From Candidatus Gottesmanbacteria bacterium (GTDB lineage Bacteria; Patescibacteriota; Microgenomatia; 2-02-FULL-39-11), in assembly GCA_016195685.1 (NCBI GenBank), contig JACPZE010000020.1, forward strand, positions 85,725 to 149,724: a DNA stretch of 64,000 bases. Direction: 5' to 3'. Made by a program: the position numbers and the translations under genes. The notes under the pieces are model-generated. The model saw nothing but the letters and a program-made list of their open reading frames with translations, was not told the DNA's origin and made no database searches. The stretch's first letter is position 1. Each line of letters begins with the position of its first letter. Shown in pieces: positions 28,781-53,014 of this stretch.

Positions 28781-29688
28781 AAATTAGTGTAATAATTCCC
28801 AACTTTAACGGAGCCAATCTTCTAAAACAAAATTTGCCAAAAGTTTTATCTTCTGTTGAAGATAGTGAAATAATAGTCGTTGATGATGCCTCAACTGATA
28901 ATAGTGTAAATATACTTCATCAATATTTTCCTCAAGTAAAAATTATTGCGAAGGATAAAACCGAAGGATTTAGCAGTAGTGTAAATGATGGTGTGAGGAA
29001 GGCCTCAGGAGATTTAATAGTACTATTAAATAGTGATGTTTGGCCAAATGAAAATCTCTTAAAATTCTTGAAACCCTATTTTCAGGATCCGTTGGTATTT
29101 GCGGTTGGTTGTTTACAGAAGAGTATGAATAGAGAACAACTTAATAAGCAGGGAAGAGGAATAGGTCAATTCAAAGAAGGCTTCATGCTTCACGGTCCGG
29201 GTAAATACAACAAAACAAACACTCTTTGGGTTTTTGGTGGTGCTGGTATGTATAGGAAAAAAATTTGGAATGAGTTAGGTGGGATGGATCCGATTTATAA
29301 TCCATTTTACTGGGAAGATATCGATATATCATATCGAGCGATAAAAGCTGGTTTTAAGGTTTTATTTGAACCTAAAAGTATAGTAAATCATGAACAATCC
29401 ACAGGATCTATCCGCTCTTTTTACTCTCCCGACTTTATTAAGACAATTGCATATCGGAACCAGATTTTGTTTGTGTGGTTAAATATAACAGATTCAATGC
29501 TAGTACTTAAGCATATAATTTACTTGCCAATTCATATACTCAGAGCATTTTTCGCACGAAACTTTCCATTTCTGGATGGGTTATTGAAAGCTTTAATTAA
29601 ACTGCCAAAAGTTCTGAGAAAGAGGCAGTTGAACAAAAAATTAAATCAAAGAACAGATAGAGAAGTCTTGTTTGGTTTGGGGGAATAA
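28777..29688 (+). CDS. GT2 glycosyltransferase
   Basis: ISVIIPNFNGANLL ... IIVVDDASTDNS ... LLNSDV ... YWEDIDISYR. Confidence 0.75.
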   Translation: MKISVIIPNFNGANLLKQNLPKVLSSVEDSEIIVVDDASTDNSVNILHQYFPQVKIIAKDKTEGFSSSVNDGVRKASGDLIVLLNSDVWPNENLLKFLKPYFQDPLVFAVGCLQKSMNREQLNKQGRGIGQFKEGFMLHGPGKYNKTNTLWVFGGAGMYRKKIWNELGGMDPIYNPFYWEDIDISYRAIKAGFKVLFEPKSIVNHEQSTGSIRSFYSPDFIKTIAYRNQILFVWLNITDSMLVLKHIIYLPIHILRAFFARNFPFLDGLLKALIKLPKVLRKRQLNKKLNQRTDREVLFGLGE

Positions 29689-29716
29689 GTTAAATTGTTA
29701 TGCTAAAATACCAATT

Positions 29717-31393
29717 ATGAGAAGACTCTTTTTTGTCATTGCGATCTTATTTTTGGCTTTTATACTTCGCTTTTATAAATTAGGACAAGTTCCTATTTCC
29801 CTTGAATGGGATGAGGTTGCTCTTGGTTATGATGCTTATTCAATTTTAAATACTGGTAAAGATCAATTCGGAAAATTTTTCCCTTCAACTTTTCGCTCAC
29901 TTGACGATTATAAACCTCCTATTTATGAGTATGCGACTGTACCGCCTGTTGCGATATTTGGATTGAATGAATTCGCAGTCAGATTCCCATCAGCGCTGTT
30001 TGGAACATTAACTGTATTATTGACATATTTGCTAGTTAAAGTTATTTTCGACCAAATTCCTCAATTTAAAAAAAGTTCTCTAAATATAGCACTAATAGCG
30101 TCTTTTTTATTGGCTATTTCTCCTTGGCATCTGCAGTTTAGCAGAGCTGCTTTTGAAGTTAATTTATCTGTTTTTATTACTGTTGCAGCGCTATTATCAT
30201 TTTTTATTGGGCTGAAAAAACCAAAATATTTTTTACTTTCCTCATTTCTATTTGGGTTTGATTTATTTTCTTATCACAGTACTAGAGTCATCACCCCTCT
30301 TCTTTTAATATTCTTATTTTTTATTTTTAATAAAAACTTGCCCTCAAGAAAAACAGTTTTGGGCTTTTTAGCAATTTATGGTTTGTTTTTCTTAGGTTTT
30401 ATTCCAATATTATTATCTCCTGATGCACAGATAAGATTTAGAGCCACGAACATATTTAATCCTGGAGCCAGATATACAGATGAGAAAGATTTGCCGAAAA
30501 TTTTTCTAGATAAGAGGCTAGAAGATAAAAATGCTGGTTTTGAATTAGCAGGAAAAATATTTCACAACCAACGCTTGATTTATACCGATTATGATACTCT
30601 AAAGAAAGCTTTTTTCAAGTATCTTTCACATTTTGATTTTGAATTTTTATTCGTAAAAGGAGATGCACCTCTCCATCATGCTCCGGATTTTGGTCTTCTC
30701 TATCTTTGGGAATTTCCATTCTTAATTACCGGTCTGTTTTTTATGTTTAAAAATGGATTGAATAGGTATTCTGTTTTTTTGCCTATTTGGATGTTACTTG
30801 CTCCACTTCCTGTTGCAGTTACCCGAGAGGCACCTCACGCGGTCAGATCAGAACTTATCCTGCCTACTTTTCAAATTTTTACTGCAGTAGGATTGATTGT
30901 ATTTCTTAATAAAATTAAGAATGAATCTCATTGGGTAAAATTTTCCCTAGTTAGTTTAGCTGTATCTTTACTGATGATAAATAATTCCAATTATTTGCAT
31001 CAATATTTTGTCCATACAAATTATGATCTATCCAAATATTGGCTTTATGGGAGAAAGGAAGCAGTAGAGTTTACAGAACAAAATAAAGTAAATTTTGATA
31101 AAGTTTTGGTATCTATGAAGGTCGATATGCCTTTTATATTCTGGCTATTTTATAGTAAATATCCTCCTGAAACGTATTTGCATGAGGGGGGTACTGTTTC
31201 CGGTGGTTTTGCTAATGAGAGAAATCATTTTGATAAATATGAATTCCGAAATTTTGATTACAACAGTCTACCGTCAAATGAAAATCTCCTTTTGGTAGGA
31301 ACGCCGGATAGTTTTCCAGATGATGCCAAAATCCTGAAAACTATTTACTATCTTGACGGGACTCAAGCATTGAAAATCGCTGCCAATAAATAA
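29717..31393 (+). CDS. ArnT/PMT_2-like GT-C glycosyltransferase, tandem paralog 1
   Basis: WDEVALGYDAYSILNTGKDQFGKFFP..FRSLDDYKPPIYEY...FGLNEFAVRFPSALFGTLTV and C-terminal YYLDGTQALKIA. ATG at 29717; the track start 29672 overlaps the upstream gene. Confidence 0.7.
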   Translation: MRRLFFVIAILFLAFILRFYKLGQVPISLEWDEVALGYDAYSILNTGKDQFGKFFPSTFRSLDDYKPPIYEYATVPPVAIFGLNEFAVRFPSALFGTLTVLLTYLLVKVIFDQIPQFKKSSLNIALIASFLLAISPWHLQFSRAAFEVNLSVFITVAALLSFFIGLKKPKYFLLSSFLFGFDLFSYHSTRVITPLLLIFLFFIFNKNLPSRKTVLGFLAIYGLFFLGFIPILLSPDAQIRFRATNIFNPGARYTDEKDLPKIFLDKRLEDKNAGFELAGKIFHNQRLIYTDYDTLKKAFFKYLSHFDFEFLFVKGDAPLHHAPDFGLLYLWEFPFLITGLFFMFKNGLNRYSVFLPIWMLLAPLPVAVTREAPHAVRSELILPTFQIFTAVGLIVFLNKIKNESHWVKFSLVSLAVSLLMINNSNYLHQYFVHTNYDLSKYWLYGRKEAVEFTEQNKVNFDKVLVSMKVDMPFIFWLFYSKYPPETYLHEGGTVSGGFANERNHFDKYEFRNFDYNSLPSNENLLLVGTPDSFPDDAKILKTIYYLDGTQALKIAANK

Positions 31394-31404
31394 TTTCAAA
31401 AACC

Positions 31405-32268
31405 ATGAAGGGCAAAATTTTATTCTTAGGTATTTTGGTATTTACAGCGGTCACAAGACTATTTCTCTTAAATAAAATTCCTCCTTCGATTAATTCGTCC
31501 GTTTATATTTGGCGCTTACTTTCAGTGTTTGCCTGTCTGATCAGCACGATTGTTGTATATACCTTGGTGAAGATGAATGTACGAAAGAAGAAGATTGCCC
31601 TTTTATCTTCCTGGATATTTGTGAATTTACCCTGGGTATTTGAGCAAAGTCGGATTATATCTTCTCCAAATTTAGCATTAACTTTGGTATTACTAATTAT
31701 GCTTTTAGTGTTAAATACCAAATATAAATTAAGAGTAGTTTTTTTATTATTTATTCCTGTTATTTTTTTTGTAAGTTATCCTAAAATGTGGATTTTTCAC
31801 GCATCTGAATTCAAATTTAATTACATTAATTTTATTAATAATTTATTTATGTTATTTTCTTTTGATTTCCTTTTTTTCAAAAATTTTACTTTTTGGTGGG
31901 GAGGAGTAAAGGAATTTGGAGTTATGTTCACGGCGTTTTTGCCATTTTTTATTGTTGGTATTTATGAAATGATAAACAGACAGGAATTTAAATTATTATT
32001 ATTGATAGTTTTTTTTGGAATTTTTTCAGCCTTAAGTCCATACTTTCCTGAAAGCCGCGAATTCTATCTAGCTGTACCTATAATTTCATTCATAACAGCG
32101 CTAGGTATTTATTGTGTCACGCAGAAAATGAAATCGGTTAACAGATCTATTTTAATATTTATGATTTTTTTGATATTGTATGAATCAGCACAATTTTTTC
32201 ACTTCTATTTTATCCATTATCCACAACAAATCATTAGTAATGTTTCCCAAATACATGAATCTTTCTAA
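31405..32268 (+). CDS. Truncated/divergent ArnT-like paralog (membrane core only; lacks catalytic first loop and C-terminal domain)
   Basis: RLLSVFACLISTIVVYTLVK...IALLSSWIFVNLPWVFEQSRIISSPNLALTLVLL aligns to the R-PSAL...ISPWH.QFSR segment of neighbouring paralogs. The ORF starts there and ends after ~7 TM helices. Confidence 0.45.
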   Translation: MKGKILFLGILVFTAVTRLFLLNKIPPSINSSVYIWRLLSVFACLISTIVVYTLVKMNVRKKKIALLSSWIFVNLPWVFEQSRIISSPNLALTLVLLIMLLVLNTKYKLRVVFLLFIPVIFFVSYPKMWIFHASEFKFNYINFINNLFMLFSFDFLFFKNFTFWWGGVKEFGVMFTAFLPFFIVGIYEMINRQEFKLLLLIVFFGIFSALSPYFPESREFYLAVPIISFITALGIYCVTQKMKSVNRSILIFMIFLILYESAQFFHFYFIHYPQQIISNVSQIHESF

Positions 32269-33916
32269 CAAGACTTACTTTTTATTAATTCTAATTGTTA
32301 TTCTTGCAGCAACGATAAGGCTGATTTGGTTGGATAAATATCCTTCCTCACTCTATTCTGATGAAATAGATCAAGGCTATAATGCGTATTCGTTGATGCT
32401 GACAGGTAAAGATGAACATGGAGTTTACATGCCTGTATCACTTCGATCTTTTGGTGATTGGAAGCCACCGTTACCGTCATATTTCATGATTCCATTTATA
32501 CGCTTAATAGGACTTTCGGAAGTTTCTGTAAGAATGCCATCAGCTCTACTAGGAATCATTACAATTATTCTTATTTTTTTCCTGACCATGGAATTATTTT
32601 CCGATCAGGAAAAACGCACGAAAATTGCTTTACTTTCTTCCTTCTTTTTATCTATTTCTCCTTGGGATATTTTACAAAGCAGAGCAGCAATGTTGGTGGT
32701 AACAGGATTATTTTTTCTAGTATTTGGCGTATATTTATTCATGAAAGGCTTAAAAAATAGTAAATTGCTTTATCTTTGTGAGTTATCGTTTGCATTGTCT
32801 ATTTATTCTTACTATGGCCTCAGAGTTGTCATCCCAGTTATTTTGATAACCTTACTTTTCTCTTTTAAAAAGCGCTTATTAGGCACGCTTACCCACAAAG
32901 ACTTTTTAGGTCTATTTATTCTTGGGTGCATATTACTTCTTCCTCTCCTTATTTCCTTTATAAAACAACCTGATGTGATTTTCGGTCGAGCAAAAACAGT
33001 AAGTATCTTCTATGATCAGGGAATAAATCTTAGAAAATGGGAATTAATTACGCAGGATGGAATTAATGCAAATCCCCTTATCACGCGTTTATTCCATAAT
33101 AATTTTTATATGTATGGAAGAAATATTCTGCAAAGATTTTTATCGCATTTTGATGGACGTTACTTATTCATGATTGGTGATACTTCTCAACCATTTCAGA
33201 TACCAAACATGGGTATACTGAATTTTACGGATTTATTTTTTATACCCTTGGGATTATTAGTTATATTTAAGAAAAATTATGCGTCACGCTGGTTAATTTT
33301 TTGTTGGATAATTGCAGGAATTTTACCATCCGCTTTTACTTTTGTTACGCCTTCCAGTAATAGGACTTTTAATGCAATTGTCATTTACTCTATTTTAGTT
33401 GCAGTGGGTACATTTTATTTCGCAAGAATATTATCCAAAAGATTATTGGGTATATTTGTTATATCTCTACTTTATTCTTTAAGTTTCGGATATTTCCTAA
33501 ATCAATACTTTGTCGAGTTACCAATTAACCATGCTGACTGGTGGAATTACGGTTGGAAACAGGTAGTAGAAATGGTAAAAAACAAGGAGGATAAATATAA
33601 CAATATAATAGTTCCAGATGTAAACGGAATGCCATATATCTATTTTCTTTTTTACGAAAAATATTCTCCAGAAGAATTTCAAAAAAGAGCTATCAAAACA
33701 TATATAGCTGATAGATTCGGATATGAGCACGTGGAGGGTTTTGGAAAATATTTGTTTCCAAATGAATTTGATTGGAATTTTATCAAGAAAAACAGTTTAG
33801 ATAAACACGCCTTGTATATTGTACCGGAAGATTTAGCGAAAAGCGATACTAATTATATTAATGCCATTTATTACCCAAATGGTAAAATAGCCTTTAAGAT
33901 ATTTGCTTATGAATAA
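32240..33916 (+). CDS. ArnT/PMT_2-like GT-C glycosyltransferase, tandem paralog 2
   Basis: YSDEIDQGYNAYSLMLTGKDEHGVYMPVSLRSFGDWKPPLPSY...VRMPSALLG and C-terminal YYPNGKIAFKIFA. The track start 32180 overlaps the upstream ORF by ~90 bp; internal ATGs at 32240 and 32255 precede the first TM. Confidence 0.65.
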   Translation: MFPKYMNLSNKTYFLLILIVILAATIRLIWLDKYPSSLYSDEIDQGYNAYSLMLTGKDEHGVYMPVSLRSFGDWKPPLPSYFMIPFIRLIGLSEVSVRMPSALLGIITIILIFFLTMELFSDQEKRTKIALLSSFFLSISPWDILQSRAAMLVVTGLFFLVFGVYLFMKGLKNSKLLYLCELSFALSIYSYYGLRVVIPVILITLLFSFKKRLLGTLTHKDFLGLFILGCILLLPLLISFIKQPDVIFGRAKTVSIFYDQGINLRKWELITQDGINANPLITRLFHNNFYMYGRNILQRFLSHFDGRYLFMIGDTSQPFQIPNMGILNFTDLFFIPLGLLVIFKKNYASRWLIFCWIIAGILPSAFTFVTPSSNRTFNAIVIYSILVAVGTFYFARILSKRLLGIFVISLLYSLSFGYFLNQYFVELPINHADWWNYGWKQVVEMVKNKEDKYNNIIVPDVNGMPYIYFLFYEKYSPEEFQKRAIKTYIADRFGYEHVEGFGKYLFPNEFDWNFIKKNSLDKHALYIVPEDLAKSDTNYINAIYYPNGKIAFKIFAYE

Positions 33917-35654
33917 TAAAAGGTTTTTATTGGGGATGATATTTTTGTTAGGATTAATTCTTCGATTTTGGAATCTTAAAGAAGCGCCTCCTGGACTTAA
34001 TAGAGATGAAGCTTCTATTGGATACACCGCATATTCACTTCTAAAGACTGGTAAAGATGAGTATGGTAAATCTTGGCCGATTTCATTTAAATCTTTTGGG
34101 GACTGGAAACTCCCTTTATATATTTATGTTGATATACCTTTCATAAATTCTTTAGGAATGACAGATATATCTGTAAGGTTACCCTCTGCAATATTCGGTA
34201 GCCTTACAGTATTTATCGTTTATTTTCTATCAAAAGAATTATTCAAAAAAGCAGAACACCTCCCATTATTATCGGCTTTTTTATTTTCTTTTTCCCCCTG
34301 GAGTATACATCTTTCACGAACTGCATCAGAAGCAAATGTAGCTGTTTTTTTTACGGCTTTGGGATTTTTATTTTATTTGCGGACTTCTAATATATGGAAT
34401 CAATTATTGGGAACAATTTTATTGTCTTTATCATTATATACATATCATGCGAATCATATATTTACACCTCTTTTATTTGCTGGGCTGGTCTTTTTTGCTT
34501 GGAGAAAAAATCGTTATCTGAAAACTCATCTTATTCCAATTTTCATTTTTTGCGTTTTAAGTTTTTTTATTTATAGCCAGACACTATTTAGTGCAGATAA
34601 AACTAAAATATCAGGATTATTTCCCGTTTCCGACCCATCTCTAGTATATGAAAAGGTAATTACCGATAGGTTGCAACATGTTAAGTCTCCAATATTTTTA
34701 TCAAATTTATTACATAACAAATTGCTTTTTATAACAATGTCAACGTTGCAAAATTATATTAAAAGTTTTTCTCCAGAGTTTTTATTTATTACCGGTGGAG
34801 GCAATGATCAACATAATATACCTGATTTTGGTAACCTATACTTGTGGGAAGCCCCATTTTTAATTCTCGGTTTTTCTTATTTTCTTATTATGAGAAGCGA
34901 AAACAAAAATATTATGCTTTGGTGGATATTGATTTCTCCAATTGCCGCAAGTATGACTAAAGATGCACCACATACAGCCAGAATGGCTTCCATAATTCCA
35001 TTATTTGAGATTCTCATTGCAATCGGAATTCTTAAATCAATAGATAATTTAAAACGAAGAGAAAATTATTTTCTTAGAATGTTTATTCCCATTGCGACTT
35101 TCTTATTTTTTATAAACTGTATTATTTGGGCGGATCGATATTTCATCCATTTTCCTCTTAAGCGTGTTTCGGAATGGGGAGAAGGATACTCGAAATTATT
35201 GACTTACCTGAAGGAAAATAATAATTTTGTTGCCAAGGAAATCGTAATGTCCAGACCGGAATATTCACCTTATATATATTTCCTTTTTTACAATTCAGTT
35301 GATCCTAGTTATTATCAAAATGCAGCAGTGAGATATCCGGAAACTGAAGAAGGCTTTCAGCATGTAGCCAAGTTTGATAATTATTCTTTTCGACAAATAG
35401 ATTGGACTGGAGATTTGGCAATACCAGATAGATTATACATTGAATGGAGTGAACAAATACCCAAGAGTGCAACTAATAGTTCGACGCTTATTACAAAAGA
35501 AGTAATGATGCAATTAATTAAGGACAATAAAAATCTATCCAACTTAAAAATTGGAGACATTATTATAAGTGAAAAAATTGGAGATATTAAACTACAAAAT
35601 AATAAATTTATGTTTTCACTTATCAAGACGTCGAAGCAGAATGAAAAAAACTGA
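33903..35654 (+). CDS. ArnT/PMT_2-like GT-C glycosyltransferase, tandem paralog 3
   Basis: NRDEASIGYTAYSLLKTGKDEYGKSWPISFKSFGDWKLPLYIY...VRLPSAIFGSLTV. Confidence 0.65.
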   Translation: MLMNNKRFLLGMIFLLGLILRFWNLKEAPPGLNRDEASIGYTAYSLLKTGKDEYGKSWPISFKSFGDWKLPLYIYVDIPFINSLGMTDISVRLPSAIFGSLTVFIVYFLSKELFKKAEHLPLLSAFLFSFSPWSIHLSRTASEANVAVFFTALGFLFYLRTSNIWNQLLGTILLSLSLYTYHANHIFTPLLFAGLVFFAWRKNRYLKTHLIPIFIFCVLSFFIYSQTLFSADKTKISGLFPVSDPSLVYEKVITDRLQHVKSPIFLSNLLHNKLLFITMSTLQNYIKSFSPEFLFITGGGNDQHNIPDFGNLYLWEAPFLILGFSYFLIMRSENKNIMLWWILISPIAASMTKDAPHTARMASIIPLFEILIAIGILKSIDNLKRRENYFLRMFIPIATFLFFINCIIWADRYFIHFPLKRVSEWGEGYSKLLTYLKENNNFVAKEIVMSRPEYSPYIYFLFYNSVDPSYYQNAAVRYPETEEGFQHVAKFDNYSFRQIDWTGDLAIPDRLYIEWSEQIPKSATNSSTLITKEVMMQLIKDNKNLSNLKIGDIIISEKIGDIKLQNNKFMFSLIKTSKQNEKN

Positions 35655-37260
35655 TATTTTACTTATTCTAATTCTAATTTTATCAATAGCGTTGCGTTTT
35701 TTTTATCTCGGCAAAATCCCTAATGGGTTTTATAGTGATGAGGCAGCTTATGGTTATAATGCCTATTCGATACTCAAAACAGGTAGAGACGAATATGGTA
35801 ATTTTTTACCACTGGCATTCAAATCATTCGGAGATTATAAAGCTCCATTATACATTTATTTTATGGTACCCTTCGTTTGGATTTTTGGACTTACAGAGTA
35901 TTCGGTGAGACTTAGTTCAGTAGTTTTAGGTATAGGAAGTATTTTTCTCATTTACCATCTGACAAAAAAATTATTTCAAACTAATTCTATCCCATTGCTT
36001 TCCGCTTTTTTAATTGCGACTTCACCTTTTGCTCTACAATATAATCGTATGGCGCATGAAAATAATCTTGTTTTATTTCTAATTACATTATCGATATTAC
36101 TCTTTTTTATATCATTCAAAAAACCAAAATACCTGATATTATCACTGATTACCTTTGCAGGAAGTATATACGCTTATCATGATACGAAAATATTTACTCC
36201 ACTTATACTGGTAACTTTATTTATACTATATAGAAAAAATATACGGATCAATAAATATACCACCATAAAGGCAATCATAATATTTCTTCTTCTCCTTGCG
36301 CCATTTTTCAAAAGCATAAATGACAAAAATAACTGGTCAAGAGCTCTATATACAAATATCTTCACTGATAAAGGTATAGTTTATGAAATAAATCAAGAAA
36401 TAGGAGAAAATATAGAAAGTGGTTTCAATGCTCCTAAAATATTCCATAATAAAGTAATTTCTTATACCCAGAAATTAATAGAAAACTATCTTAAGCAGTT
36501 TTCTCCAGAATTTATCTTTATTTTTGACGATCCAACAAAAATATATCAAATTGGCGGAAGTGGAATTTTATATCTAACAACCTTGCCTTTTCTCCTTTTA
36601 GGTATATATATATTTTTCCGAAAGAATTTAAATCATAAATGGTTAATTTTTCTTTGGCTAGGGATTTCTCCCTTACCAGCGGTTTTCACAAGGCTTGTTC
36701 CTTCCTCTAGTAGGATAATATCTTTTTTACCTGTCATTTCAATTATTATCGCAATAGGATATTTGTCTTCATTACCATATATTAAAAATAATTTCTCCAG
36801 GAAAATATATATAATAATTTTGTCTGTTATTTTTACATTAAATATAAGTTACTATCTGCATTATTATTATTTTAATACTCCCATCCGATTCGCTCATGAA
36901 TGGCATTATGGCATGAAAGAAGTGATTGGAGATGTTCTGAAAGTCCAAAATAAATATTCCCAGGTATGGTTTAGTAAAACTGCCTGGGGTTATATTTATC
37001 CGCTTTTTTATATGAAATACCCTCCAGATATATACCAAACTCAAGCAAAACTATCTGCATTAAATGAATTCGGATTTGGCTGGATAGATAATTTTGGAAA
37101 ATATACCTTTGCAGATATTCCGGATAAGTTGTATAGACGACCGGAAGTTTTATACATAGGTGATGTTTCTGATTTTCCGGATATCAAGAAACCGTTGAAT
37201 ACGGTATATTATCCAGACAATCATGTAGCCTTTTATTTAGCTGATCAAACGTCATTTTGA
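35641..37260 (+). CDS. ArnT/PMT_2-like GT-C glycosyltransferase, tandem paralog 4
   Basis: YSDEAAYGYNAYSILKTGRDEYGNFLPLAFKSFGDYKAPLYIY...VRLSSVVLG and C-terminal VYYPDNHVAFYLA. ATG at 35641 (MKKTDILLIL); the track start 35569 overlaps the upstream gene by 86 bp. Confidence 0.65.
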   Translation: MKKTDILLILILILSIALRFFYLGKIPNGFYSDEAAYGYNAYSILKTGRDEYGNFLPLAFKSFGDYKAPLYIYFMVPFVWIFGLTEYSVRLSSVVLGIGSIFLIYHLTKKLFQTNSIPLLSAFLIATSPFALQYNRMAHENNLVLFLITLSILLFFISFKKPKYLILSLITFAGSIYAYHDTKIFTPLILVTLFILYRKNIRINKYTTIKAIIIFLLLLAPFFKSINDKNNWSRALYTNIFTDKGIVYEINQEIGENIESGFNAPKIFHNKVISYTQKLIENYLKQFSPEFIFIFDDPTKIYQIGGSGILYLTTLPFLLLGIYIFFRKNLNHKWLIFLWLGISPLPAVFTRLVPSSSRIISFLPVISIIIAIGYLSSLPYIKNNFSRKIYIIILSVIFTLNISYYLHYYYFNTPIRFAHEWHYGMKEVIGDVLKVQNKYSQVWFSKTAWGYIYPLFYMKYPPDIYQTQAKLSALNEFGFGWIDNFGKYTFADIPDKLYRRPEVLYIGDVSDFPDIKKPLNTVYYPDNHVAFYLADQTSF

Positions 37261-37391
37261 AAATATGAAAGATTAATCTGCTAAATTTATTTAAGTTAAT
37301 CCATTAAATTATAGATTTATGGATAAATACGGTATTATAAATGATAATAAAGATATACATAAGATGACCGAGTAGGAGATTTTATAACCTT
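37261..37391 (+). promoter_or_regulatory. 131-bp AT-rich intergenic spacer, the largest in the locus; candidate internal promoter/RBS region
   Basis: Contains TATAAT-like hexamers (ggtattataaat), an 8-bp palindrome GATTAATC, and a GGAG Shine-Dalgarno-like motif ~12 nt before the ATG at 37392. Confidence 0.3.
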
Positions 37392-39023
37392 ATGAAGACC
37401 AAAGTATTATTTATTTTAATTATTTTATTAGCCTTTCTTCTTAGGACTTACAAATTGGATAAGTATCCGGGATTATTATATGGTGATGAGCAGGCTTTTG
37501 CCTGGAATGCTTATACAATATTGAAGATGGGAACCGATGAATTTGGGACGCCATACCCTCTTGAATTCCGTTCGTTTGATGATTATAAAGCCCCGATACC
37601 AGTTTATCTTCTTGTTCCCTTTATTAAGTTTTTGGGATTTAATCCTTTTGCTATCAGACTGCCGATTGCATTGGCTTCAATATTCACAGTAATTGCAGTT
37701 TACTTTTTCGCAAGGTTATACTTTAACCAAAAAGCATCTTTTATTATTACATTTCTTATGGCTGTGTCAGCATGGCATATACATTTATCGAGGGGATTTT
37801 TTGAGAGCACCCTTGCCTTGCTATGGTTTATACTCGGGGTTTATTTTTTCGTCAAAGACAAGCCTAATACAAGAAGGACTCTTCTGAGTATGACTTTTTT
37901 CGCTTTATCAATATATAGCTATTTTACACCAAGACTATTATTACCCTTATTTCTATTATTTCTTTTATTTTTTCAAAGATCTTATATTTTTTCCACCGGT
38001 AGGTTTTTATTTACCAACATAAAAATTTATATAATTGGCTTCCTTTTTCTTTTTGTTATTTCTCTGCCGCTTCTTCAGGTGACATTTTTCGGCCAGGGTC
38101 TTTCAAGGATGAAGAAACTTAATGAAAGTACAAATAATCTTATTGCCGAAACAGTAAAGCATGATAGATTTGCCACTAATCTGGAACCGGAATGGAATCG
38201 CTTCTTTCACAATAAGCTTACTGTTTGGGTAAGGTTATTCAAGGATAATTATTTAGAGCATTTGTCGGCTAATTTTTGGTATATATATGGAGATAGTTCT
38301 TTGCGGTATTTTACCGGCAATATGGGGATGTTTTACCTTATAGAATCTCCTTTCTTTATATTTGGTTTATATAACTTATGGAAAGAGAAGCGACGGGCAG
38401 CAACATTATCCTTAGGCTGGATATTACTTGCTCCCATTCCTGCTAGTTTGGTCGGACGCCCTTTTGCTTTAAGAAGTTTAGCTATGTTGCCGGTACCATT
38501 TTTTATCGTCGGATTTGGTATATATAAAGCAACTCAATATTTTAAGCAAATATTTATAAATTTGATTTTGAGCGCACTCATTTCTATTGCATTTATTACC
38601 TCTCTTTGTAGTTTATCTATTCGGTATTATCTGGAATATCCTGTATATGCGGCTACCTGGTGGGGTTGGGAAAATAAAGCAGCGTTTGATTTTGCAAAAG
38701 TGAGAGAATCAAACTTTGATAATATTTTTATTTCTGATTTTTATACAGGTTCAACCTTGGCTTTTGCTGTATATACCGGATACGACCCGAAAGAATATAT
38801 ATACTCAATAAATCATCCAGTTGTTTTGGCGGATGGAAGGCACCTGATTAAATTGGGTAAATATTATTTCGGTTCTTTAGACATCGATAGCAAAAGACTG
38901 CAGGAAGGGGTTATTCCACCACGTAGTTTATATATTGGTCGACCTGAAGAAGCTGATTCGGCTCTCCAAATTAAAGCTCCAGATGATGGAAGGGTAATAT
39001 TTAAAATATATGAGGTAAGGTAA
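37392..39023 (+). CDS. ArnT/PMT_2-like GT-C glycosyltransferase, tandem paralog 5
   Basis: YGDEQAFAWNAYTILKMGTDEFGTPYPLEFRSFDDYKAPIPVY...IRLPIALASIFTV. Preceded by the only >100-bp intergenic gap in the locus. Confidence 0.65.
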   Translation: MKTKVLFILIILLAFLLRTYKLDKYPGLLYGDEQAFAWNAYTILKMGTDEFGTPYPLEFRSFDDYKAPIPVYLLVPFIKFLGFNPFAIRLPIALASIFTVIAVYFFARLYFNQKASFIITFLMAVSAWHIHLSRGFFESTLALLWFILGVYFFVKDKPNTRRTLLSMTFFALSIYSYFTPRLLLPLFLLFLLFFQRSYIFSTGRFLFTNIKIYIIGFLFLFVISLPLLQVTFFGQGLSRMKKLNESTNNLIAETVKHDRFATNLEPEWNRFFHNKLTVWVRLFKDNYLEHLSANFWYIYGDSSLRYFTGNMGMFYLIESPFFIFGLYNLWKEKRRAATLSLGWILLAPIPASLVGRPFALRSLAMLPVPFFIVGFGIYKATQYFKQIFINLILSALISIAFITSLCSLSIRYYLEYPVYAATWWGWENKAAFDFAKVRESNFDNIFISDFYTGSTLAFAVYTGYDPKEYIYSINHPVVLADGRHLIKLGKYYFGSLDIDSKRLQEGVIPPRSLYIGRPEEADSALQIKAPDDGRVIFKIYEVR

Positions 39024-41005
39024 TGATGCTAGTTCTATCGATTATTAAATTTCTTGGATTCCTCACTTTTTTTATATATATTCCATCCCAAATAGTATTT
39101 AATCTTTGCAAAATCAAAATTAAAGATAATCTGGTAAACATTGGCTTGTCATTTGTATCTGGAATTGTCATAATAACTCTTATTTCTTTGGTGATAAGGT
39201 ATGCGGGATTAAGTTTCTCGGTGTTATGGATTATATTTCTCCTGAGTTTATTTTATTTAGTTTTCAGATTTAAGATAAAAAATTTCAGAGAAATTTTAAA
39301 GCAAAAAATCTTCCCCAAAAATAAGTCAGCCCAAATAATATTATTCCTAGTTTTAGGAATGTGTGTTATCTTACAAAATTTAGTACTTTTTTCCGGTGGA
39401 ACACAAGTGTCTGGTGGTTTAGCTTTTCCCTCTCCACATGATACTATGTGGAATATAGCTTTGGCATCGGAATTAATTCACCGTTTTCCGGCCGATAATC
39501 CTGCAGTTTCAGGCATATTATTGAAAAATAACCATTATTTTTACCCCCTTTTTCTTTCTGTTGCTAGATCCATAACCGGTATTGATATTTTTGACCTTTA
39601 TTTTAGATTTGGTCCAATTTTAGTCTCCATACTATTTGGTTTGGGATTGTATTCAGTCAGCAAAGTTTTTATCGATAATATTTATTTTCGGATTACTGCA
39701 GTTTTCCTGGGATATTTTTCTGGAAATTTTGCTTATTTACTGCCATTTATATTTGGTAAGAATTTTGATTGGAAAGGTAATACGTTTTTTTCCGATCAGC
39801 CTTTTGATCAACTTATAAATCCTTACTCAGTGTTAGGTTTTGCGCTTATGCTTTTTGGAATTTATTGTTTATCACAAATTCATACCCCAAAGAAAAATTT
39901 ATCTCTGGGATATAGTATTGTGGGTGGAATATTATTGGGTTCTTTATACGGATTTAAATCATTTGGTGGTGTTATAGTAATTTTAACTTTAGTAATCAGT
40001 ACTTCTATTTCTTTTGCTTTCAGTAAAAAGCTGACTTTTCTTCCGGTTACTGCATTAAGCATGGGTTTATTTGTTTTTATCTTTCTATTTACTACAGATC
40101 CATCAAAAGCATCATTAATTTGGGCACCGGGTTGGTTGCTTACTCAACTTATGACTGATCAGGATAAACTGAATTTACCCCAATTTGCCAATCTTGAAAG
40201 ATTCTACGCTTTTTCTTTCAATAGACTGGGGTTTCTGAAAATAAAGTTTATAGAATTTTTTATTTATTTGATTGGAAATCTTGGTACACGACTCTTAGGT
40301 ATGATTTATCTGGTTTTTTATTTTTTAAAAAAATCAGTTTATATTTTTGATAAATATATCTATTTATTTATGATAGTCGCTACAATCATATCCATTGCGA
40401 TTCCTCTTTTTTTTAATCTCACAAACAGTACTTTCAATATTATTCAATTCACACCTTACGCATTGGTAATTCTTAGTTTGATTAGTACGGTCATACTGGA
40501 GATAATTTATAGTTTCTTGGTTTTTAAAAAACAGCGACTTATTGGTATAGTTATCATAATTATTTTTATAATTTTATCTATACCGGTGAATGTCAAAAAT
40601 GTTATTAGCAAATTTGAAAGACCAAAAGATATTCTTTCGTATGGAGAATTATCAGCATTAAAATATTTGCAAGACAATTCAAACGCGCAAGATATTATTC
40701 TGATAAATCCTTCTACTTTTTCCCAAGATCCAATTTATATTCCTGCGATTAGTGAAAGAAGAGTATATCTAGCAAGTCCAGGTTATGCTATTCAGACAGG
40801 TGTTGATCCTGTAAGTCGTTTGAAAGAAATTAATATATTTTTTCATACTTATAATAAAGAATTTTTGGCAAAAAATAAGATAGCATATATATATGAGTTA
40901 AGAACAAATTCTTCCTCAAATCGAAATGATTCTTTATTTAAGCTGGGATTATCAAGCGTCTTTGAGAATGATAAAGTTATAATATGGAAAGTTAATATAA
41001 CTTAA
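39023..41005 (+). CDS. Large polytopic membrane protein of unknown family (660 aa) embedded in the ArnT-like array
   Basis: About 14+ predicted TM helices. Conserved-looking loop FPSPHDTMWNIALASELIHRFPADNP. Hydrophilic C-terminal ~120 aa (LINPSTFSQDPIYIPAISERRVYLASPGYAIQTG...). TAATG overlap with the upstream gene. Confidence 0.4.
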   Translation: MMLVLSIIKFLGFLTFFIYIPSQIVFNLCKIKIKDNLVNIGLSFVSGIVIITLISLVIRYAGLSFSVLWIIFLLSLFYLVFRFKIKNFREILKQKIFPKNKSAQIILFLVLGMCVILQNLVLFSGGTQVSGGLAFPSPHDTMWNIALASELIHRFPADNPAVSGILLKNNHYFYPLFLSVARSITGIDIFDLYFRFGPILVSILFGLGLYSVSKVFIDNIYFRITAVFLGYFSGNFAYLLPFIFGKNFDWKGNTFFSDQPFDQLINPYSVLGFALMLFGIYCLSQIHTPKKNLSLGYSIVGGILLGSLYGFKSFGGVIVILTLVISTSISFAFSKKLTFLPVTALSMGLFVFIFLFTTDPSKASLIWAPGWLLTQLMTDQDKLNLPQFANLERFYAFSFNRLGFLKIKFIEFFIYLIGNLGTRLLGMIYLVFYFLKKSVYIFDKYIYLFMIVATIISIAIPLFFNLTNSTFNIIQFTPYALVILSLISTVILEIIYSFLVFKKQRLIGIVIIIIFIILSIPVNVKNVISKFERPKDILSYGELSALKYLQDNSNAQDIILINPSTFSQDPIYIPAISERRVYLASPGYAIQTGVDPVSRLKEINIFFHTYNKEFLAKNKIAYIYELRTNSSSNRNDSLFKLGLSSVFENDKVIIWKVNIT

Positions 41006-41006
41006 A

Positions 41007-42617
41007 ATGAAAAAAGTACTTCTTTTATTCATTATTGGTTTGGCATTGAGTTTGCGTATTTTTCAATTAGGACAAACTCCAGCTTCCCTTTATTGGGATG
41101 AGGTTTCTTTAGGTTATAATGCCTATTCAATAGCTACTTCACTTCATGATGAACATGGGGAATACGTCCCTCTTGCTAGATTTATAGCATTTGGCGATTA
41201 TAAGCCTCCTGGATATATCTATGCAGCGGTACCAAGTATTTTAACCTTCGGGCTAAATGAATTTGCCGTTCGTTTTCCTTCAATGTTAGCAGGATTACTT
41301 ATGGTCTTGATTACTTATTATTTCACAAAAGAACTTTTTGCGAACGATAGTATTGCATTATTATCAAGCTTAGTTATAGCTATCTCACCTTGGGCGATTC
41401 AATTTTCCAGGGCAGCCTTTGAGGCCAATTTGGCAGCATTTTTCAATCTATTTGGAGTTTATTTATTTTTAGTTTCTCGAAGGAAAAAATGGATAATTAT
41501 TTTGTCTGTAATTTCGTTCATTTTATCTTTTTATACTTTTAATGCCAATAGAATTATTGCCCCACTTCTTCTTTTATCCTTGTCAATTATATACGGGAAA
41601 TCAATAATCAATAACAAGAAATGGGTTCTAATTTCCATAATAATTTCATTGATTGCTCTAATGCCTAGTTACTCTTATTTGCAAAGTCACGAGAGTAAAC
41701 TTAGATTTCAAGAAGTATCGATATTTAATAATTTATCCCCGGTTGAAATTTCAAATGAAAGAATCAAAACAGATGGTAACACTTGGTGGGCGAAAATAAT
41801 TCATAATAGACGAATACTATTTGCGGAAGATTATTTAAAACATTATTTCGACAATTTTTCCGGGCGCTTTCTTTTTACTCATGGGGATATCAATCCGAGG
41901 TTGGCGGTACAGAGTATGGGAGAATTTTATCCTTGGGATTTGCCGTTTTTACTTATAGGAATTTATTGGTTAGTAAAAAAAAGGGAAAAAAATCTTGCAG
42001 TTTTATCCATTTGGATGATGATAGCGGCCATACCAGCCGCAACAGCACGGGAAACTCCTCATGCCCTTCGGATATTATCAATATTGCCAACTTATCATAT
42101 ACTCATCGCTTATGGATTATTTCATGTGATTAAATGGATGAAATTAAAAATACATAAGCAAAATATACTAATTGCTTTCTCTGTCATTTGCTTTTTGCTA
42201 TCTGTAAATATTTTTTATTACCTACATGATTATTATATACATTATTCTAGAGATTGGAGCGGCGAGTGGCAATATGGGTATAAGCAAATGGTTTCTTATG
42301 TATCATCTGTTGCAGATAAGTATGATCATATTTTTGTAACCAATGCATTAGGTAGACCATATATTTATTTTGCTTTTTTTGATAAATATTCTTCTGCTGA
42401 TTTTAGTAAAAATAGGGTAGCAGAAAGAGATTGGTTTGGTTTCTGGGACGTGAAATCTCTAGGAAAAATTCAATTCGATTTTAGTACTTTACCCAAGTCA
42501 ACGGGGAGAATATTAATTGTGAATACACCCGGTAATCTACCAGGAGATTTTCATCTGTTACAAAAAGTTAAAAACCTAAAAGATGAAGATGTTTTCTGGA
42601 TTGCAGAGAGAATATGA
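41007..42617 (+). CDS. ArnT/PMT_2-like GT-C glycosyltransferase, tandem paralog 6
   Basis: WDEVSLGYNAYSIATSLHDEHGEYVPLARFIAFGDYKPPGYIY...VRFPSMLAGLLMV. Confidence 0.65.
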   Translation: MKKVLLLFIIGLALSLRIFQLGQTPASLYWDEVSLGYNAYSIATSLHDEHGEYVPLARFIAFGDYKPPGYIYAAVPSILTFGLNEFAVRFPSMLAGLLMVLITYYFTKELFANDSIALLSSLVIAISPWAIQFSRAAFEANLAAFFNLFGVYLFLVSRRKKWIIILSVISFILSFYTFNANRIIAPLLLLSLSIIYGKSIINNKKWVLISIIISLIALMPSYSYLQSHESKLRFQEVSIFNNLSPVEISNERIKTDGNTWWAKIIHNRRILFAEDYLKHYFDNFSGRFLFTHGDINPRLAVQSMGEFYPWDLPFLLIGIYWLVKKREKNLAVLSIWMMIAAIPAATARETPHALRILSILPTYHILIAYGLFHVIKWMKLKIHKQNILIAFSVICFLLSVNIFYYLHDYYIHYSRDWSGEWQYGYKQMVSYVSSVADKYDHIFVTNALGRPYIYFAFFDKYSSADFSKNRVAERDWFGFWDVKSLGKIQFDFSTLPKSTGRILIVNTPGNLPGDFHLLQKVKNLKDEDVFWIAERI

Positions 42618-44227
42618 AGTCTAAAGTTATTATTTTATTGATATTCGTATTGTCATTTATTTTGCGTTTTTGGCAACTTGGTATAAATCCTCCATCACTT
42701 GATTGGGATGAAGCCTCTTTAGGATACAATGCTTATTCTATACTTAAAACTGCGAAAGATGAGTACGGTAACTTTCTGCCTCTTTCGATTCGTTCTTTTA
42801 ATGATTATAAACCACCTCTTTATAGTTATTTAACTATTGGACCAGTAGCTTTTTTTGGATTGAATGAATTTTCTACAAGATTCATTTCAGCCTTATTGGG
42901 AAGTCTTACGGTTGTCGTAGCATATTTTTTAATGAAAGAATTATTACCGCAAAAATCAAAAATATTATATATGCTTTTTAGTCTTTTTTTTGCTGTTTCT
43001 CCATGGCATCTACAATTTTCTAGAATCGCATTTGAAGCAAATAGCGCATTATTTTTCGTGATATTTGGAATGTGGTTATTTTTTAAAGGTTTTAAAAAAG
43101 AACAATTCTTTCTTCTTTCTTTTGTCTCGTTTAGTCTATCTACTTATGCTTACCATAGTGAAAGATTGGTAGTTCCTCTTATTTTAATTGGGTTACTTTT
43201 CCTTTATCGAAAAGAGTTGAAGCAAAAAATGAAGTGGGTAGTAATTAGTATAGTTATTTTTGTTTTATTATTTATTCCTATTATTCAACAGCTACGTTTA
43301 ACTTCAGCCAGGTTTGGATCCGTAACCATACTAAATCCAGATGAAAAACTTGGAAAGAGTATACAATCGATTGAATATGATAAGCAACAAAAAGATTGGC
43401 TTGGAACATTGATGCACAATCGAAGAATTGTTTATGCCAGGGAAGTTTTGGGAGGTTATTTGGATCATTTTAATTTTGATTTCTTATTCATGACAGGAGA
43501 TCCTCCAGGGAGACATCATGCAGCTGGAATGGGCATGTTATATTTCTGGGATATTCCTTTTGTTCTTATCGGATTGTATATGTTACTTAGGGATAGGAAT
43601 AAGGAAAATTTATTTATACTTTGGTGGTTCGCACTAGCACCTGTAGCTTCTGCATTTACTTCTGGCACTCCTCATGCAGTGAGAGCTCTTACATACCTTC
43701 CTACATATCAGATTTTTATTGCCATCGGATCAATAGAAATGATCAGATTACTCAAAAAGCATAAAAGAAAAGTTTATGGAAGATTTTTGTTGTTTTTTAC
43801 CTTTACTTTACTCATCGTTAATTTTTCATACTATCTACACATGTATTATTTACATACGCCTCGGGAATACTCCCAATGGTGGCAGTATGGGTATAAGCAA
43901 ATGATATCCGAAGTAGCTAAATATGAAAAAAATGTTGATAAAGTCATTGTAACTTATAGGTACGATCAGCCATATGTTTTTTTCCTTTTTTATAATCAAA
44001 TAGATCCAGATTGGTACCAAAAAAATTGGGGAGGGGGAGAAATTATGAGAGCAAATAGAAGTTTTGGAAAATATGAATTCCACAATTTAGATTGGGCAAA
44101 GGATTCTCATACTACTGGCATACTTTTAGTTGGTACACCAGATGAGATCCCGAAAGACTCTTTTGGTATCCTGTCTGAAATAAAATTTTTGGACGGGTCG
44201 GTTGCCTTCAGAATTGCAGCAAGGTAA
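42614..44227 (+). CDS. ArnT/PMT_2-like GT-C glycosyltransferase, tandem paralog 7
   Basis: WDEASLGYNAYSILKTAKDEYGNFLPLSIRSFNDYKPPLYSY...TRFISALLGSLTV and C-terminal KFLDGSVAFRIAA. ATGA overlap upstream. Confidence 0.65.
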   Translation: MKSKVIILLIFVLSFILRFWQLGINPPSLDWDEASLGYNAYSILKTAKDEYGNFLPLSIRSFNDYKPPLYSYLTIGPVAFFGLNEFSTRFISALLGSLTVVVAYFLMKELLPQKSKILYMLFSLFFAVSPWHLQFSRIAFEANSALFFVIFGMWLFFKGFKKEQFFLLSFVSFSLSTYAYHSERLVVPLILIGLLFLYRKELKQKMKWVVISIVIFVLLFIPIIQQLRLTSARFGSVTILNPDEKLGKSIQSIEYDKQQKDWLGTLMHNRRIVYAREVLGGYLDHFNFDFLFMTGDPPGRHHAAGMGMLYFWDIPFVLIGLYMLLRDRNKENLFILWWFALAPVASAFTSGTPHAVRALTYLPTYQIFIAIGSIEMIRLLKKHKRKVYGRFLLFFTFTLLIVNFSYYLHMYYLHTPREYSQWWQYGYKQMISEVAKYEKNVDKVIVTYRYDQPYVFFLFYNQIDPDWYQKNWGGGEIMRANRSFGKYEFHNLDWAKDSHTTGILLVGTPDEIPKDSFGILSEIKFLDGSVAFRIAAR

Positions 44228-52646: not shown

Positions 52647-52651
52647 ATAAT

Positions 52652-53014
52652 ATGAGCTTGACTCTGACGCAAATACTTCTGACTTTATTTTTAATATTTG
52701 CTATAAGTAGGGTAGTACTACGGTTTAAAGATGGAGAGGTGTCATGGTTGGCTCTTTTATTCTGGGTTACCCTTTTTAGTTTAGCTATCATTGCAATCTT
52801 ATTGCCACAAATTACAAGTGAATTAGCATGGATTTTAGGGGTAGGTAGGGGAGCAGATGCGGTAATTTATATATCCATAGTCTTGCTTTTTTATTTAGTT
52901 TTTCGCCTTTATGTATATCTTGGCGATTTAAGACACGATATTACCGAATTAATAAAAGAAATTGCATTAAAAGATCTACCCAAACGACATGACAAGAAAA
53001 CTTCCAAAGATTAG
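52652..53014 (+). CDS. Small 3-4-TM membrane protein, DUF2304-like (companion of GT2 polyprenol-P sugar synthases)
   Basis: 120 aa and hydrophobic. C-terminal amphipathic tail LYVYLGDLRHDITELIKEI. Sits immediately downstream of a DPM1-like GT2, the usual context of DUF2304 proteins. Confidence 0.45.
   Translation: MSLTLTQILLTLFLIFAISRVVLRFKDGEVSWLALLFWVTLFSLAIIAILLPQITSELAWILGVGRGADAVIYISIVLLFYLVFRLYVYLGDLRHDITELIKEIALKDLPKRHDKKTSKD

Follow-up and report, generated by a model that had tools for sequence, protein, structure and literature searches.

Nine back-to-back genes for GT-C-fold membrane proteins lie at positions 29672-44227 of the window analysed here, a 64-kb (64,000-nucleotide) stretch of a Candidatus Gottesmanbacteria genome: seven full-length copies (A-G), a short protein (s) and gene X. 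We propose, with a probability of about 60%, that this array works as an assembly line outside the cytoplasm, in which transferases that depend on polyprenyl-phosphate sugars act on a surface glycan, copies A-G being duplicates older than the species and having separate roles. The proposal builds on observed homology, fold, residue conservation, orthology and synteny; the site of action of the array enzymes would be outside the membrane. Candidatus Gottesmanbacteria is a groundwater bacterium of the Candidate Phyla Radiation, with a tiny genome.

Organization of the array and its flanks

The ORFs listed in an earlier note on this DNA are present at their coordinates, but its count of eight consecutive genes omitted a ninth, gene X, between copies E and F. 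Its starts for copies A, B and D are internal ATGs of longer ORFs (opening with TTG, ATG and GTG, respectively), yet they are the more plausible starts. Stop and start codons of array neighbors overlap or lie 1-11 nt apart, with one exception, the 131-nt AT-rich gap 5' of copy E that is the sole sizeable intergenic gap within the array; we count this tight spacing in favor of array co-expression. The stretch from F through G to the epimerase is identical in two independent read-set assemblies, which together with the same gene order in many other genomes rules out an assembly artefact as the source of the array.

Table 1. Genes of the array and of its flanks (positions in the window)
Feature	Position	Strand	Description
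YfhO-family GT-C	26486-28780	+	Pfam YfhO 93.9 bits
Upstream GT2	28777-29688	+	Pfam Glycos_transf_2 92.4 bits
Copy A	29717-31393	+	Full-length PMT_2-type GT-C; longest ORF from TTG 29672, likely start ATG 29717
s	31405-32268	+	287 aa, about 8 TM; short GT-C-derived homolog, directly upstream of copy B
Copy B	32240-33916	+	Full-length PMT_2-type GT-C; longest ORF from 32180, overlapping 3' end of s
Copy C	33903-35654	+	Full-length PMT_2-type GT-C; C-terminus longer, divergent
Copy D	35641-37260	+	Full-length PMT_2-type GT-C; longest ORF from GTG 35569
Copy E	37392-39023	+	Full-length PMT_2-type GT-C, most divergent of the seven
Gene X	39023-41005	+	660 aa, polytopic; GT-C fold; between copies E and F
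Copy F	41007-42617	+	Full-length PMT_2-type GT-C
Copy G	42614-44227	+	Full-length PMT_2-type GT-C; used for structure model
GalE-like SDR epimerase	44237-45169	+	Best solved relative UDP-glucose 4-epimerase 4zrm, E 3e-86
UGM-like FAD protein (PRK07208 family)	45156-46622	+	NCBIfam NF005548 452.7 vs cutoff 389
DPMS/GtrB-like GT2 (gt2b)	46567-47379	+	Putative polyprenyl-phosphate sugar synthase; Pfam Glycos_transf_2
PTPS_related/YfhO-like GT-C	47366-49018	+	Pfam
Downstream GT2	49015-49770	+	Pfam
Downstream GT4	49783-50838	+	Pfam

In most related loci the YfhO/GT2 pair is found upstream of copy A (adjoining it in many) and the GalE-like, UGM-like and DPMS-like trio downstream of copy G; the order of the last three genes of the table is likewise conserved. 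The epimerase scores 180.9 bits against NCBIfam galE, below the cutoff of 262. The best 20 PDB matches of the UGM-like protein are all UDP-galactopyranose mutases (top hit 4dsg, E 1.5e-18, residues 9-453), but it reaches only 64 bits against the NCBIfam UGM model (cutoff 304) and is thus far from characterised mutases, a distance that makes the furanose idea weak. The trio may supply one donor, a polyprenyl-phospho-hexose, possibly a furanose.

The third trio member, gt2b, is the best-conserved gene of the neighborhood (55-78% identity) and provides a GtrB/DPMS-type GT2 synthase encoded together with the GT-C genes, conserved 3' of the array. It has one C-terminal hydrophobic helix, a single PDB match (dolichol-phosphate mannose synthase 5mlz, E 1.5e-9) and sub-threshold NCBIfam matches to AglJ, PpgS and Dol-P-hexose transferase. 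Six small GT2 genes of the window form one BLAST group, and the two GT2 genes tested against NCBIfam resemble polyprenyl-phosphate sugar synthases. No dedicated small flippase (GtrA or SMR-type) was found within or beside the array; the sole GtrA domain found (PF04138) is in a GT2-GtrA fusion at 3681-4820, about 25 kb away, and the window also holds a MOP flippase gene. The 64 kb yielded neither a phosphoglycosyltransferase for initiation nor an obvious gene for an acceptor protein or polymer.

Family, fold and conserved residues

In all-against-all BLASTP the seven full-length copies match each other over their whole length at 28-41% identity (E 1e-42 to 1e-134), and in a MAFFT alignment at 26-41%; the strong divergence described earlier is real, although the range is slightly lower than the 30-45% estimated by eye. 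The assignment to the GT-C/PMT_2 family with ArnT-like architecture is borne out by Pfam search and structure comparison. Rather than falling in an unrelated transporter family, every copy reaches at least the PMT_2 or the PMT gathering threshold (26.1 bits for PF13231, 22.7 for PF02366). PMT_2 scores are 43.5 (A), 44.6 (B), 26.2 (C, marginal), 46.1 (D), 40.9 (E), 31.9 (F) and 42.9 bits (G). PMT is above threshold for A (29.1), C (32.3), F (49.6) and also G, a range of 29-50 bits, and below it for B (19.7) and D (18.5), with no match for E. NCBI names copy G a 'phospholipid carrier-dependent glycosyltransferase'.

More specific identities were rejected. In GT39 protein O-mannosyltransferases (PMTs) the large lumenal loop contains a MIR domain, and PMT_4TMC forms the C-terminal module; neither domain was reported for any copy (Pfam, E<=0.01), and what lies at the C-terminus is an alpha/beta globular domain (about 115 aa) of unrelated type, so these are not bona fide PMTs. 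Orthology to ArnT fails on the NCBIfam model NF009784, which gives 15.8-18.7 bits for A, D and G (cutoff 567) and no score for B, C, E and F. The Agl23 family (TIGR03663) matches at 28-49 bits over the N-terminal third only, its cutoff of 126 bits being unreached.

Copies A-G share a multi-helix membrane module, an outward first loop with an Asp-Glu pair and a phosphate-binding Lys, and a C-terminal outward globular domain. The AF2 model of copy G (pLDDT 90.6) superimposes in its overall fold on solved GT-C enzymes (fold class A, ArnT/PMT/STT3-like), with the DE pair placed where the first loop helix begins. ArnT is the nearest solved structure, and ArnT and ALG12 are closer than PMT enzymes. 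The family profile likewise reaches ArnT as its only PDB sequence, the family KPP aligning with ArnT KPPF, whose K85 touches the phosphate of the carrier (PMC7801869). In loop 1, the hallmark of catalysis is the DE motif (PMC8698208).

As had been noted, both the acidic DE loop and the KPP lysine are conserved in each of the seven copies. Among the residues invariant in the alignment (ORF-A numbering) are D47, E48, A55, Y56, D64, G67, P71, D79, K81, P83 and Y87, and further G97, R104, R158, H298 and N299. In G numbering, neither residue of D32-E33 varies among the seven copies or among the 96 sequences of the orthogroups (see below), and no member of any of the seven orthogroups has lost D32, E33, D49, R89, R137 or R357. 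The same holds for D64 and K66, except that group D has conservative D/E64 and K/R66. Group B has the fixed changes E141L and H354S/A. The C-terminal YYLDG/YYPNG...AFKIA ending, described earlier as shared, holds for A, B and D and is looser in the remaining copies. From the retained D/E/K/R set, copies A-G are predicted to be catalytically competent glycosyltransferases, and the alignment of the KPP lysine with ArnT K85, with the adjacent DPMS-like GT2 genes, suggests that their donor would be a polyprenyl-phosphate-linked sugar.

Protein s had been taken for a truncated copy; we found instead a conserved short family of about 285 aa, a remodelled GT-C form that is always 5' of B. Three parts are missing from s: the DE/KPP loop, some 130 aa in the middle of the protein and the C-terminal domain. 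It has no Pfam match, but hhalign aligns it with the paralog profile, loop deleted, at 99.8% probability (E 1.3e-29). Fourteen s orthologs align and conserve motifs particular to them (FWWGGVRE.G and SP.FPESREFYL), all 37 homologs are 282-321 aa long, and a B ortholog follows s in 30 of 30 cases. This uniform length, the private motifs and the constant place before copy B rule out a decayed gene or remnant. Because the catalytic loop is absent, s cannot be catalytic; it is probably a partner subunit of copy B.

Gene X has no Pfam match, and by sequence no relation to known families is detectable, but its fold is of the GT-C type and its C-terminal globular domain resembles that of AglB. An STT3/AglB/PglB oligosaccharyltransferase would be expected to match Pfam STT3 and to contain WWDYG in its C-terminal domain; this identity was rejected. 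X is missing in some related genomes, and its role is among the points that we infer.

Age and divergence of the copies

We found positional orthologs of the copies at 18 loci in 16 Gottesmanbacteria species assemblies, mostly at 43-69% identity (42-69% in orthogroup A) versus 26-42% between paralogs, except that some copy D orthologs are just 32-39% identical. A neighbor-joining tree resolves seven clean orthogroups of 10-17 sequences each, counting the window copy (A 12, B 13, C 10, D 11, E 17, F 17). Across the 16 assemblies orthology is 1:1 for A, s-B, E, F and G, their order is kept and the within-group trees look broadly similar. Copy C is absent from some related genomes, its presence differing between loci, and some lack copy D or have a more divergent form of it; three loci (L005, L009, L017) have extra divergent copies, and other contigs show a second array layout. 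With C, D and X missing from some genomes and extra copies elsewhere, the pathway is not rigidly fixed. That the duplications are old and not a recent amplification, as proposed in the earlier note, agrees with these clean orthogroups and with orthologs being closer than paralogs; judged by sequence comparison, they predate the divergence of the sampled Gottesmanbacteria. A seven-fold tandem expansion is indeed highly unusual against textbook bacteria, but within the lineage it is the conserved norm: all 33 metagenome loci of >=15 kb hold 2-7 family members side by side. Clustered at 50% identity, the family comprises about 6,400 representatives at E<=1e-30.

Divergence is uneven along the protein. 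Paralogs agree best in the catalytic loop (51% identity) and least in the outward loop 230-306 (23%) and the C-terminal domain (26%); within orthogroups the corresponding values are 75%, 56% and 53%. We count this regional pattern, with the group-specific fixed substitutions, as evidence for a division of labor. The conserved catalytic loop would reflect shared chemistry and donor handling, and the diverged second outward loop and C-terminal domain a changed recognition of acceptor or linkage. The suggestion that copies were retained for different specificities thus fits the seven orthogroups and the concentration of divergence in outward-facing regions, and each paralog appears to have persisted as an enzyme in its own right that the others cannot replace.

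Function of the array and its alternatives

Under the assembly-line proposal, cytoplasmic GT2 enzymes would put sugars onto polyprenyl phosphate, the lipid-linked sugars would flip across the membrane, and every paralog would then contribute a single residue or linkage of its own to a glycoconjugate of the cell surface, whether still growing or pre-formed. The mycobacterial embCAB genes are also arranged in tandem. EmbA/B/C and AftA-D are GT-C paralogs that form different linkages outside the membrane from one decaprenyl-phospho-arabinofuranose donor, a lipid-linked furanose made by genes nearby (PMC11127046), and Emb proteins can be heteromeric, as in the EmbA-EmbB structure; by analogy, this arabinan assembly is the best functional parallel for the array. 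The lumenal ALG enzymes acting on the N-glycan precursor are a second analogy for stepwise action, although ALG3/9/12/6/8/10 are eukaryotic ER-lumenal proteins from unlinked genes, without the C-terminal globular domain and at 9-11% identity. Combination of a GT2 polyprenyl-phosphate sugar synthase with a GT-C is shared with the GtrA/GtrB/Gtr*, CsbB/GtcA/YfhO and GT136 systems, whose three-component logic (synthase, flippase, GT-C) is set out in PMC11127046, and the flanking YfhO-family genes recall CsbB/GtcA/YfhO-type systems. Those systems have one synthase per GT-C, whereas the array has many GT-Cs, few synthases and no small flippase adjoining.

One alternative is that the paralogs are PMT/TMTC-like protein O-glycosyltransferases, each serving other secreted or surface proteins (S-layer, pilins), with no polysaccharide made. 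PMTs (GT39; Pmt1/2/4 and bacterial Pmt) do resemble the array in their Pfam PMT/PMT_2 matches and invariant loop-1 DE (PMC8698208), in having several paralogs, and in that they can form heteromers such as Pmt1-Pmt2. We consider this unlikely given the missing MIR and PMT_4TMC matches, the different C-terminal globular domain, the closer structural relation to ArnT and ALG12, which have lipid-linked acceptors, and the surroundings, which are mostly polysaccharide-type (MOP flippase, GT4, GT2, nucleotide-sugar enzymes) and include no candidate target protein gene within 64 kb. ArnT (GT83, undecaprenyl-phosphate-Ara4N:lipid A transferase, 5EZM/5F15) invites another reading, in which the copies add sugars to membrane lipids, for instance in cationic antimicrobial peptide resistance. 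It is the closest solved structure and the one PDB sequence within reach of the family profile, and JGI labels relatives 'Ara4N transferase-like'. Yet identity to ArnT is just 10-12%, the equivalog model fails (16-19 bits), no ArnA/B/C/D set or other Ara4N pathway genes were identified, and one lipid target poorly explains seven specialised copies where ArnT is one enzyme with its pathway; the odds of this reading seem close to negligible.

The copies might also be interchangeable cassettes that vary a surface glycan against phages or for host recognition, their number being set by turnover. The species-dependent presence of C, D and X, the extra copies and the second layout point that way, and side chains added by periplasmic GT-Cs are a classical cause of differences between serotypes (PMC11127046). 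The 1:1 orthology and conserved order of the other members speak against it, as does the 53-56% identity of outward-facing regions within orthogroups, which indicates purifying and not diversifying selection; we regard the cassette explanation as improbable. Finally, GT-C-like proteins are not necessarily all transferases, since purified Agl23, an archaeal PMT_2-like protein, is reported to move lipid-linked oligosaccharide (PMC11182771), and some paralogs could likewise translocate or chaperone lipid-linked sugars. In copies A, B, C and G the N-terminal third has Agl23 as its best, though sub-threshold, NCBIfam match, dedicated small flippases are few in the window, and s retains the membrane core with its catalytic loop gone. 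Those scores are far below cutoff, however, and all seven full-length copies keep the acidic/Lys/Arg set expected of an active GT-C, which transport alone would not need; we judge such a role very improbable.

A more specific joint reading, which we offer tentatively and think doubtful as a whole, is that 7-9 GT-Cs build an extracytoplasmic, arabinogalactan-like furanose wall heteropolymer from one trio-made polyprenyl-phospho-furanose donor, with s a B-bound pseudoenzyme and X a new GT-C family. If true, a reduced-genome CPR bacterium would build a complex cell-wall heteropolymer entirely outside its membrane; s would be a new type of GT-C pseudoenzyme, an obligate heteromer with B that presents or flips the lipid-linked donor or serves as a scaffold, and X would found a GT-C family without sequence link to known ones. 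The conserved array points to an elaborate, hitherto undescribed sugar coat made outside the cell membrane.

A tandem array of diverged GT-C paralogs

The interval 29672-44227 contains nine ORFs: seven full-length PMT_2-type GT-C paralogs (copies A to G), a short homolog (s) and gene X, which interrupts the run of genes that the earlier note had called consecutive. The array of seven related proteins itself is real, with full-length mutual matches by both BLASTP (28-41% identity, E 1e-42 to 1e-134) and MAFFT (26-41% identity). The multiple alignment also bears out the shared motifs proposed for these proteins; invariant are an Asp-Glu pair, then AY, D, G and P, then D.K.P..Y, with more invariant Arg, His and Asn residues beyond this loop motif. 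Window G+C is ~32%, nearly all genes lie on the + strand, and spacing is minimal. An internal promoter could lie in the sole sizeable intergenic gap of the array, between D and E, two genes that in related genomes are directly adjacent or overlapping. Promoter and terminator consensus scans did no better than on shuffled sequence and are thus uninformative on operon boundaries and on the D-E gap.

Taken one by one, the array genes are already under generic annotation. Copy G is 100% identical to a Candidatus Gottesmanbacteria NCBI protein named "phospholipid carrier-dependent glycosyltransferase", and relatives of G carry the NCBI name "glycosyltransferase family 39 protein". NCBIfam gave sub-threshold matches only, and therefore no equivalog name for the copies. 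A PDB sequence search with copy G found no match; the family profile reached ArnT alone in the PDB, weakly (E 0.008).

Features of the window (window coordinates)
Feature	Position	Strand	Description
Copies A, B, C, D, E, F, G (starts, in order)	29672/29717, 32180/32240, 33903, 35569/35641, 37392, 41007, 42614	+	536-583 aa; mutual full-length matches
s	31405-32268		Short homolog
D-E gap	37261-37391		131 nt, AT-rich; GGAG ahead of E start
X	39023-41005		660 aa; "hypothetical protein", no Pfam match
Trio	44237-47379		GalE-like epimerase directly after G (PDB 4zrm, E 3e-86); UGM-like flavoprotein, PRK07208 family (best 20 PDB matches all UDP-galactopyranose mutases); DPMS-like GT2 (46567-47379)
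Further PMT_2 genes	4796-6337, 8294-9784, 18537-19679, 53789-55291
YfhO/PTPS-like paralogs	9800-11428, 11404-13149, 26486-28780, 47366-49018
PIG-V-like gene	50835-51959
MOP flippase	19661-21184
GT2-GtrA/DPMS fusion	3681-4820		GT2 fused to GtrA/DPMS transmembrane domain
GT2-DUF2304-GT2	51966-53792		Adjoins PMT_2 gene
Weakly matched polytopic genes	7073-8266, 17174-18565		Weak matches only (EpsG-like; BLAST to array copies)
DUF3863-like gene	21181-22851		556 aa; weak DUF3863 match only; <4 predicted membrane helices
Minus-strand gene	61700-63124	-	474 aa, about 8 TM, no Pfam match

With copy E as the query, GTDB species genomes yielded 18 loci in 16 assemblies. In these loci each copy of the window is matched by a positional ortholog, mostly at 43-69% identity (some orthologs of copy D are exceptions, down at 32-39%), while the next match in rank, at 26-42%, is a paralog. 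In a neighbour-joining tree of 100 homologs, seven orthogroups separate cleanly, each of 10-17 sequences including the window copy, along with a few extra divergent copies. These comparisons of sequence and position indicate that the duplications are older than the divergence of these species, as the earlier note had supposed. We rejected recent amplification, since identity among the paralogs is 26-41% and their origin predates the separation of the species, and likewise an assembly artefact, given independent assemblies and synteny across species; the F-G-epimerase stretch is identical in two independent assemblies.

The usual order across loci is YfhO-GT2-A-s-B-(C)-(D)-E-(X)-F-G-epimerase-FAD protein-GT2-PTPS/YfhO-like-GT2-GT4, the presence of C, D and X being variable. 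Seven of the related loci compared for gene order (L006, L007, L009, L012, L016, L017 and L020) are labelled "uncultured Gammaproteobacteria" or "Bacteroidota", yet carry the Gottesmanbacteria-type array, with copy E at 47-62% identity and the same gene order; the assemblies are probably mis-assigned bins. At another locus (L004, 1222-2865) the B ortholog is divided between an ORF of 229 aa and one of 267 aa, through either a frameshift or pseudogenization or a faulty assembly.

Searched with a profile built from the seven paralogs, the 50%-identity cluster representatives gave 6,366 matches at E<=1e-30; at E<=1e-10 the number rose to 16,147. Each of the 33 loci of 15 kb or longer from a metagenome scan had 2-7 strong family members (mode 4) within about 10 kb of the match; G+C of these loci was 0.29-0.48. 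Tandem arrays are thus the rule for the family, and the seven-fold array is a lineage hallmark rather than a one-off. The array had been thought highly unusual, but within its lineage it is typical rather than unique and to that extent less surprising. In the literature searched we found no description of such arrays in CPR bacteria, an absence that is not proof that none exists. Eight of the metagenome loci (L040, L043, L044, L045, L050, L065, L072 and L080; G+C about 0.35-0.38) have a second layout, YfhO-GT2-GT2b-...-PTPS-A-like-paralog-F-like-unknown-paralog-paralog-GT2-GT4, which is without s, B and E and presumably comes from a sister lineage.

The short protein s and gene X

The short homolog s, previously taken for a truncated copy, is more than a truncation and forms a conserved family of its own. 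Fourteen orthologs align well and have their own conserved motifs (FWWGGVRE.G, SP.FPESREFYL and HYPQ). The hhalign comparison with the paralog profile gave a probability of 99.8% (E 1.3e-29), and showed that s lacks the DE/KPP loop, ~130 residues in its centre and the C-terminal domain. A database search found 37 homologs, all of 282-321 aa; the five with a source name are all labelled hypothetical proteins. We scored the pairing of s with B in the window (31405-33916) and in loci L004-L020 and L021-L099. A B ortholog directly follows s in 30 of the 30 cases with a visible downstream gene (26 distinct sequences after de-duplication), the longest ORFs typically overlapping by 14 nt. Conversely, among B orthologs that no contig end cuts short, all are preceded by s, and where B is missing s is missing too (both are absent in L005 and L022). 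At least 26 distinct sequences preserve s as an intact ORF of ~285 aa, for which reason a pseudogene reading was rejected. Its own motifs, the loss of the loop and the constant pairing therefore mark s as a conserved derivative of GT-C enzymes that is not catalytic and whose function is tied to that of B. The two may form a heteromer, as Pmt1-Pmt2 and EmbA-EmbB do; alternatively, for s, reports on Agl23 (PMC11182771) suggest that it might handle the lipid-linked sugar.

Gene X was placed by structure model and not by sequence profile, the hhalign comparison with the paralog profile being negative. The model predicts a GT-C fold enzyme with a C-terminal domain similar to the one in archaeal AglB; the WWDYG motif is absent from X. 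The family is small (74 homologs, the named members coming from Gottesmanbacteria, Microgenomates and related assemblies) and constitutes a new object, a predicted GT-C fold invisible to sequence profiles.

A glycosylation island and its proposed working

The whole window (1-64000) forms one glycosylation island, with its genes on a single strand, and encodes 22 polytopic membrane proteins, 18 of them with GT-C evidence: 11 PMT_2 proteins, s, X, four YfhO/PTPS-related and one PIG-V-like. There are also about a dozen GT2 genes, including six small ones that form one BLAST group (the two tested resemble polyprenyl-phosphate sugar synthases), four GT4 enzymes, a UDP-glucose dehydrogenase, several SDR epimerases/dehydratases, acetyltransferases and a methyltransferase. 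The trio of GalE-like, UGM-like and DPMS-like genes lies directly 3' of G in most related loci as well and looks like a synthesis module for a lipid-linked sugar, possibly a furanose. The GT2 fusion, which has the window's only GtrA-type domain, and the GT2-DUF2304-GT2 genes look like further lipid-linked-sugar modules. For the two weakly matched polytopic genes, candidate roles are those of polymerase, ligase or another GT-C type, and the sole sizeable minus-strand gene possibly marks the island end.

This gene content fits the logic of extracytoplasmic glycosylation, in which a GT2 loads a sugar on polyprenyl phosphate and, after flipping, a GT-C enzyme transfers it outside the membrane (PMC11127046). 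We infer the donor class, sidedness and division of labour of A to G accordingly with caution: the copies would work as an assembly line on a surface glycoconjugate, with a particular residue or linkage contributed by each, and a polyprenyl-phospho-hexose, possibly a furanose, may be among the donors. Such a line would be functionally like Emb/Aft on arabinan and the lumenal ALG series.

Residues D32, E33, D49, R89, R137 and R357 (copy G numbering) are kept in all sequences of all seven orthogroups, as are D64 and K66 bar conservative D/E and K/R changes in group D. This full catalytic set in the full-length copies speaks against a role as translocators, which we disfavour. The paralogs are most alike in the catalytic loop (51% identity); the value is lowest, at 23%, in a second outward loop (residues 230-306) and, at 26%, in the C-terminal domain; the corresponding values within orthogroups are 75%, 56% and 53%. 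Some substitutions are fixed by orthogroup, e.g. E141L in B, H354S/F in B, D and E, and D296G in C. The pattern is as expected from sequences that share chemistry and donor handling and have diverged in acceptor or linkage specificity, and the low paralog identity of the outward parts fits the retention for different acceptors or linkages that the earlier note had envisaged; its core interpretation was right overall. Protein O-glycosylation of the PMT type, with different targets for each copy, is plausible, though of low probability, and lipid modification in the manner of ArnT is unlikely. The 1:1 orthology of the copies speaks against interchangeable cassettes that vary the surface, a reading we disfavour.

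Glycan biosynthesis genes beyond those for peptidoglycan and lipopolysaccharide were almost missing from CPR/Patescibacteria in a genomic survey (PMC7137472). An island of 64 kb on one strand, with at least 18 GT-C-type genes and a core array conserved across Gottesmanbacteria, contrasts with this glycan-poor picture. One Gottesmanbacteria contig among the search matches reaches 1.1 Mb; in a genome of that kind the island could take up several percent. The seven orthogroups, with the same chemistry and diverged outward parts, offer a natural set for the study of GT-C acceptor choice, and the loop-less homolog s tied to B and the sequence-orphan GT-C gene X are two further new objects. CPR organisms are thought to be attached to or dependent on other cells, and contact with hosts and phages probably takes place at this surface; here a tiny genome appears to invest heavily in an elaborate surface glycan.
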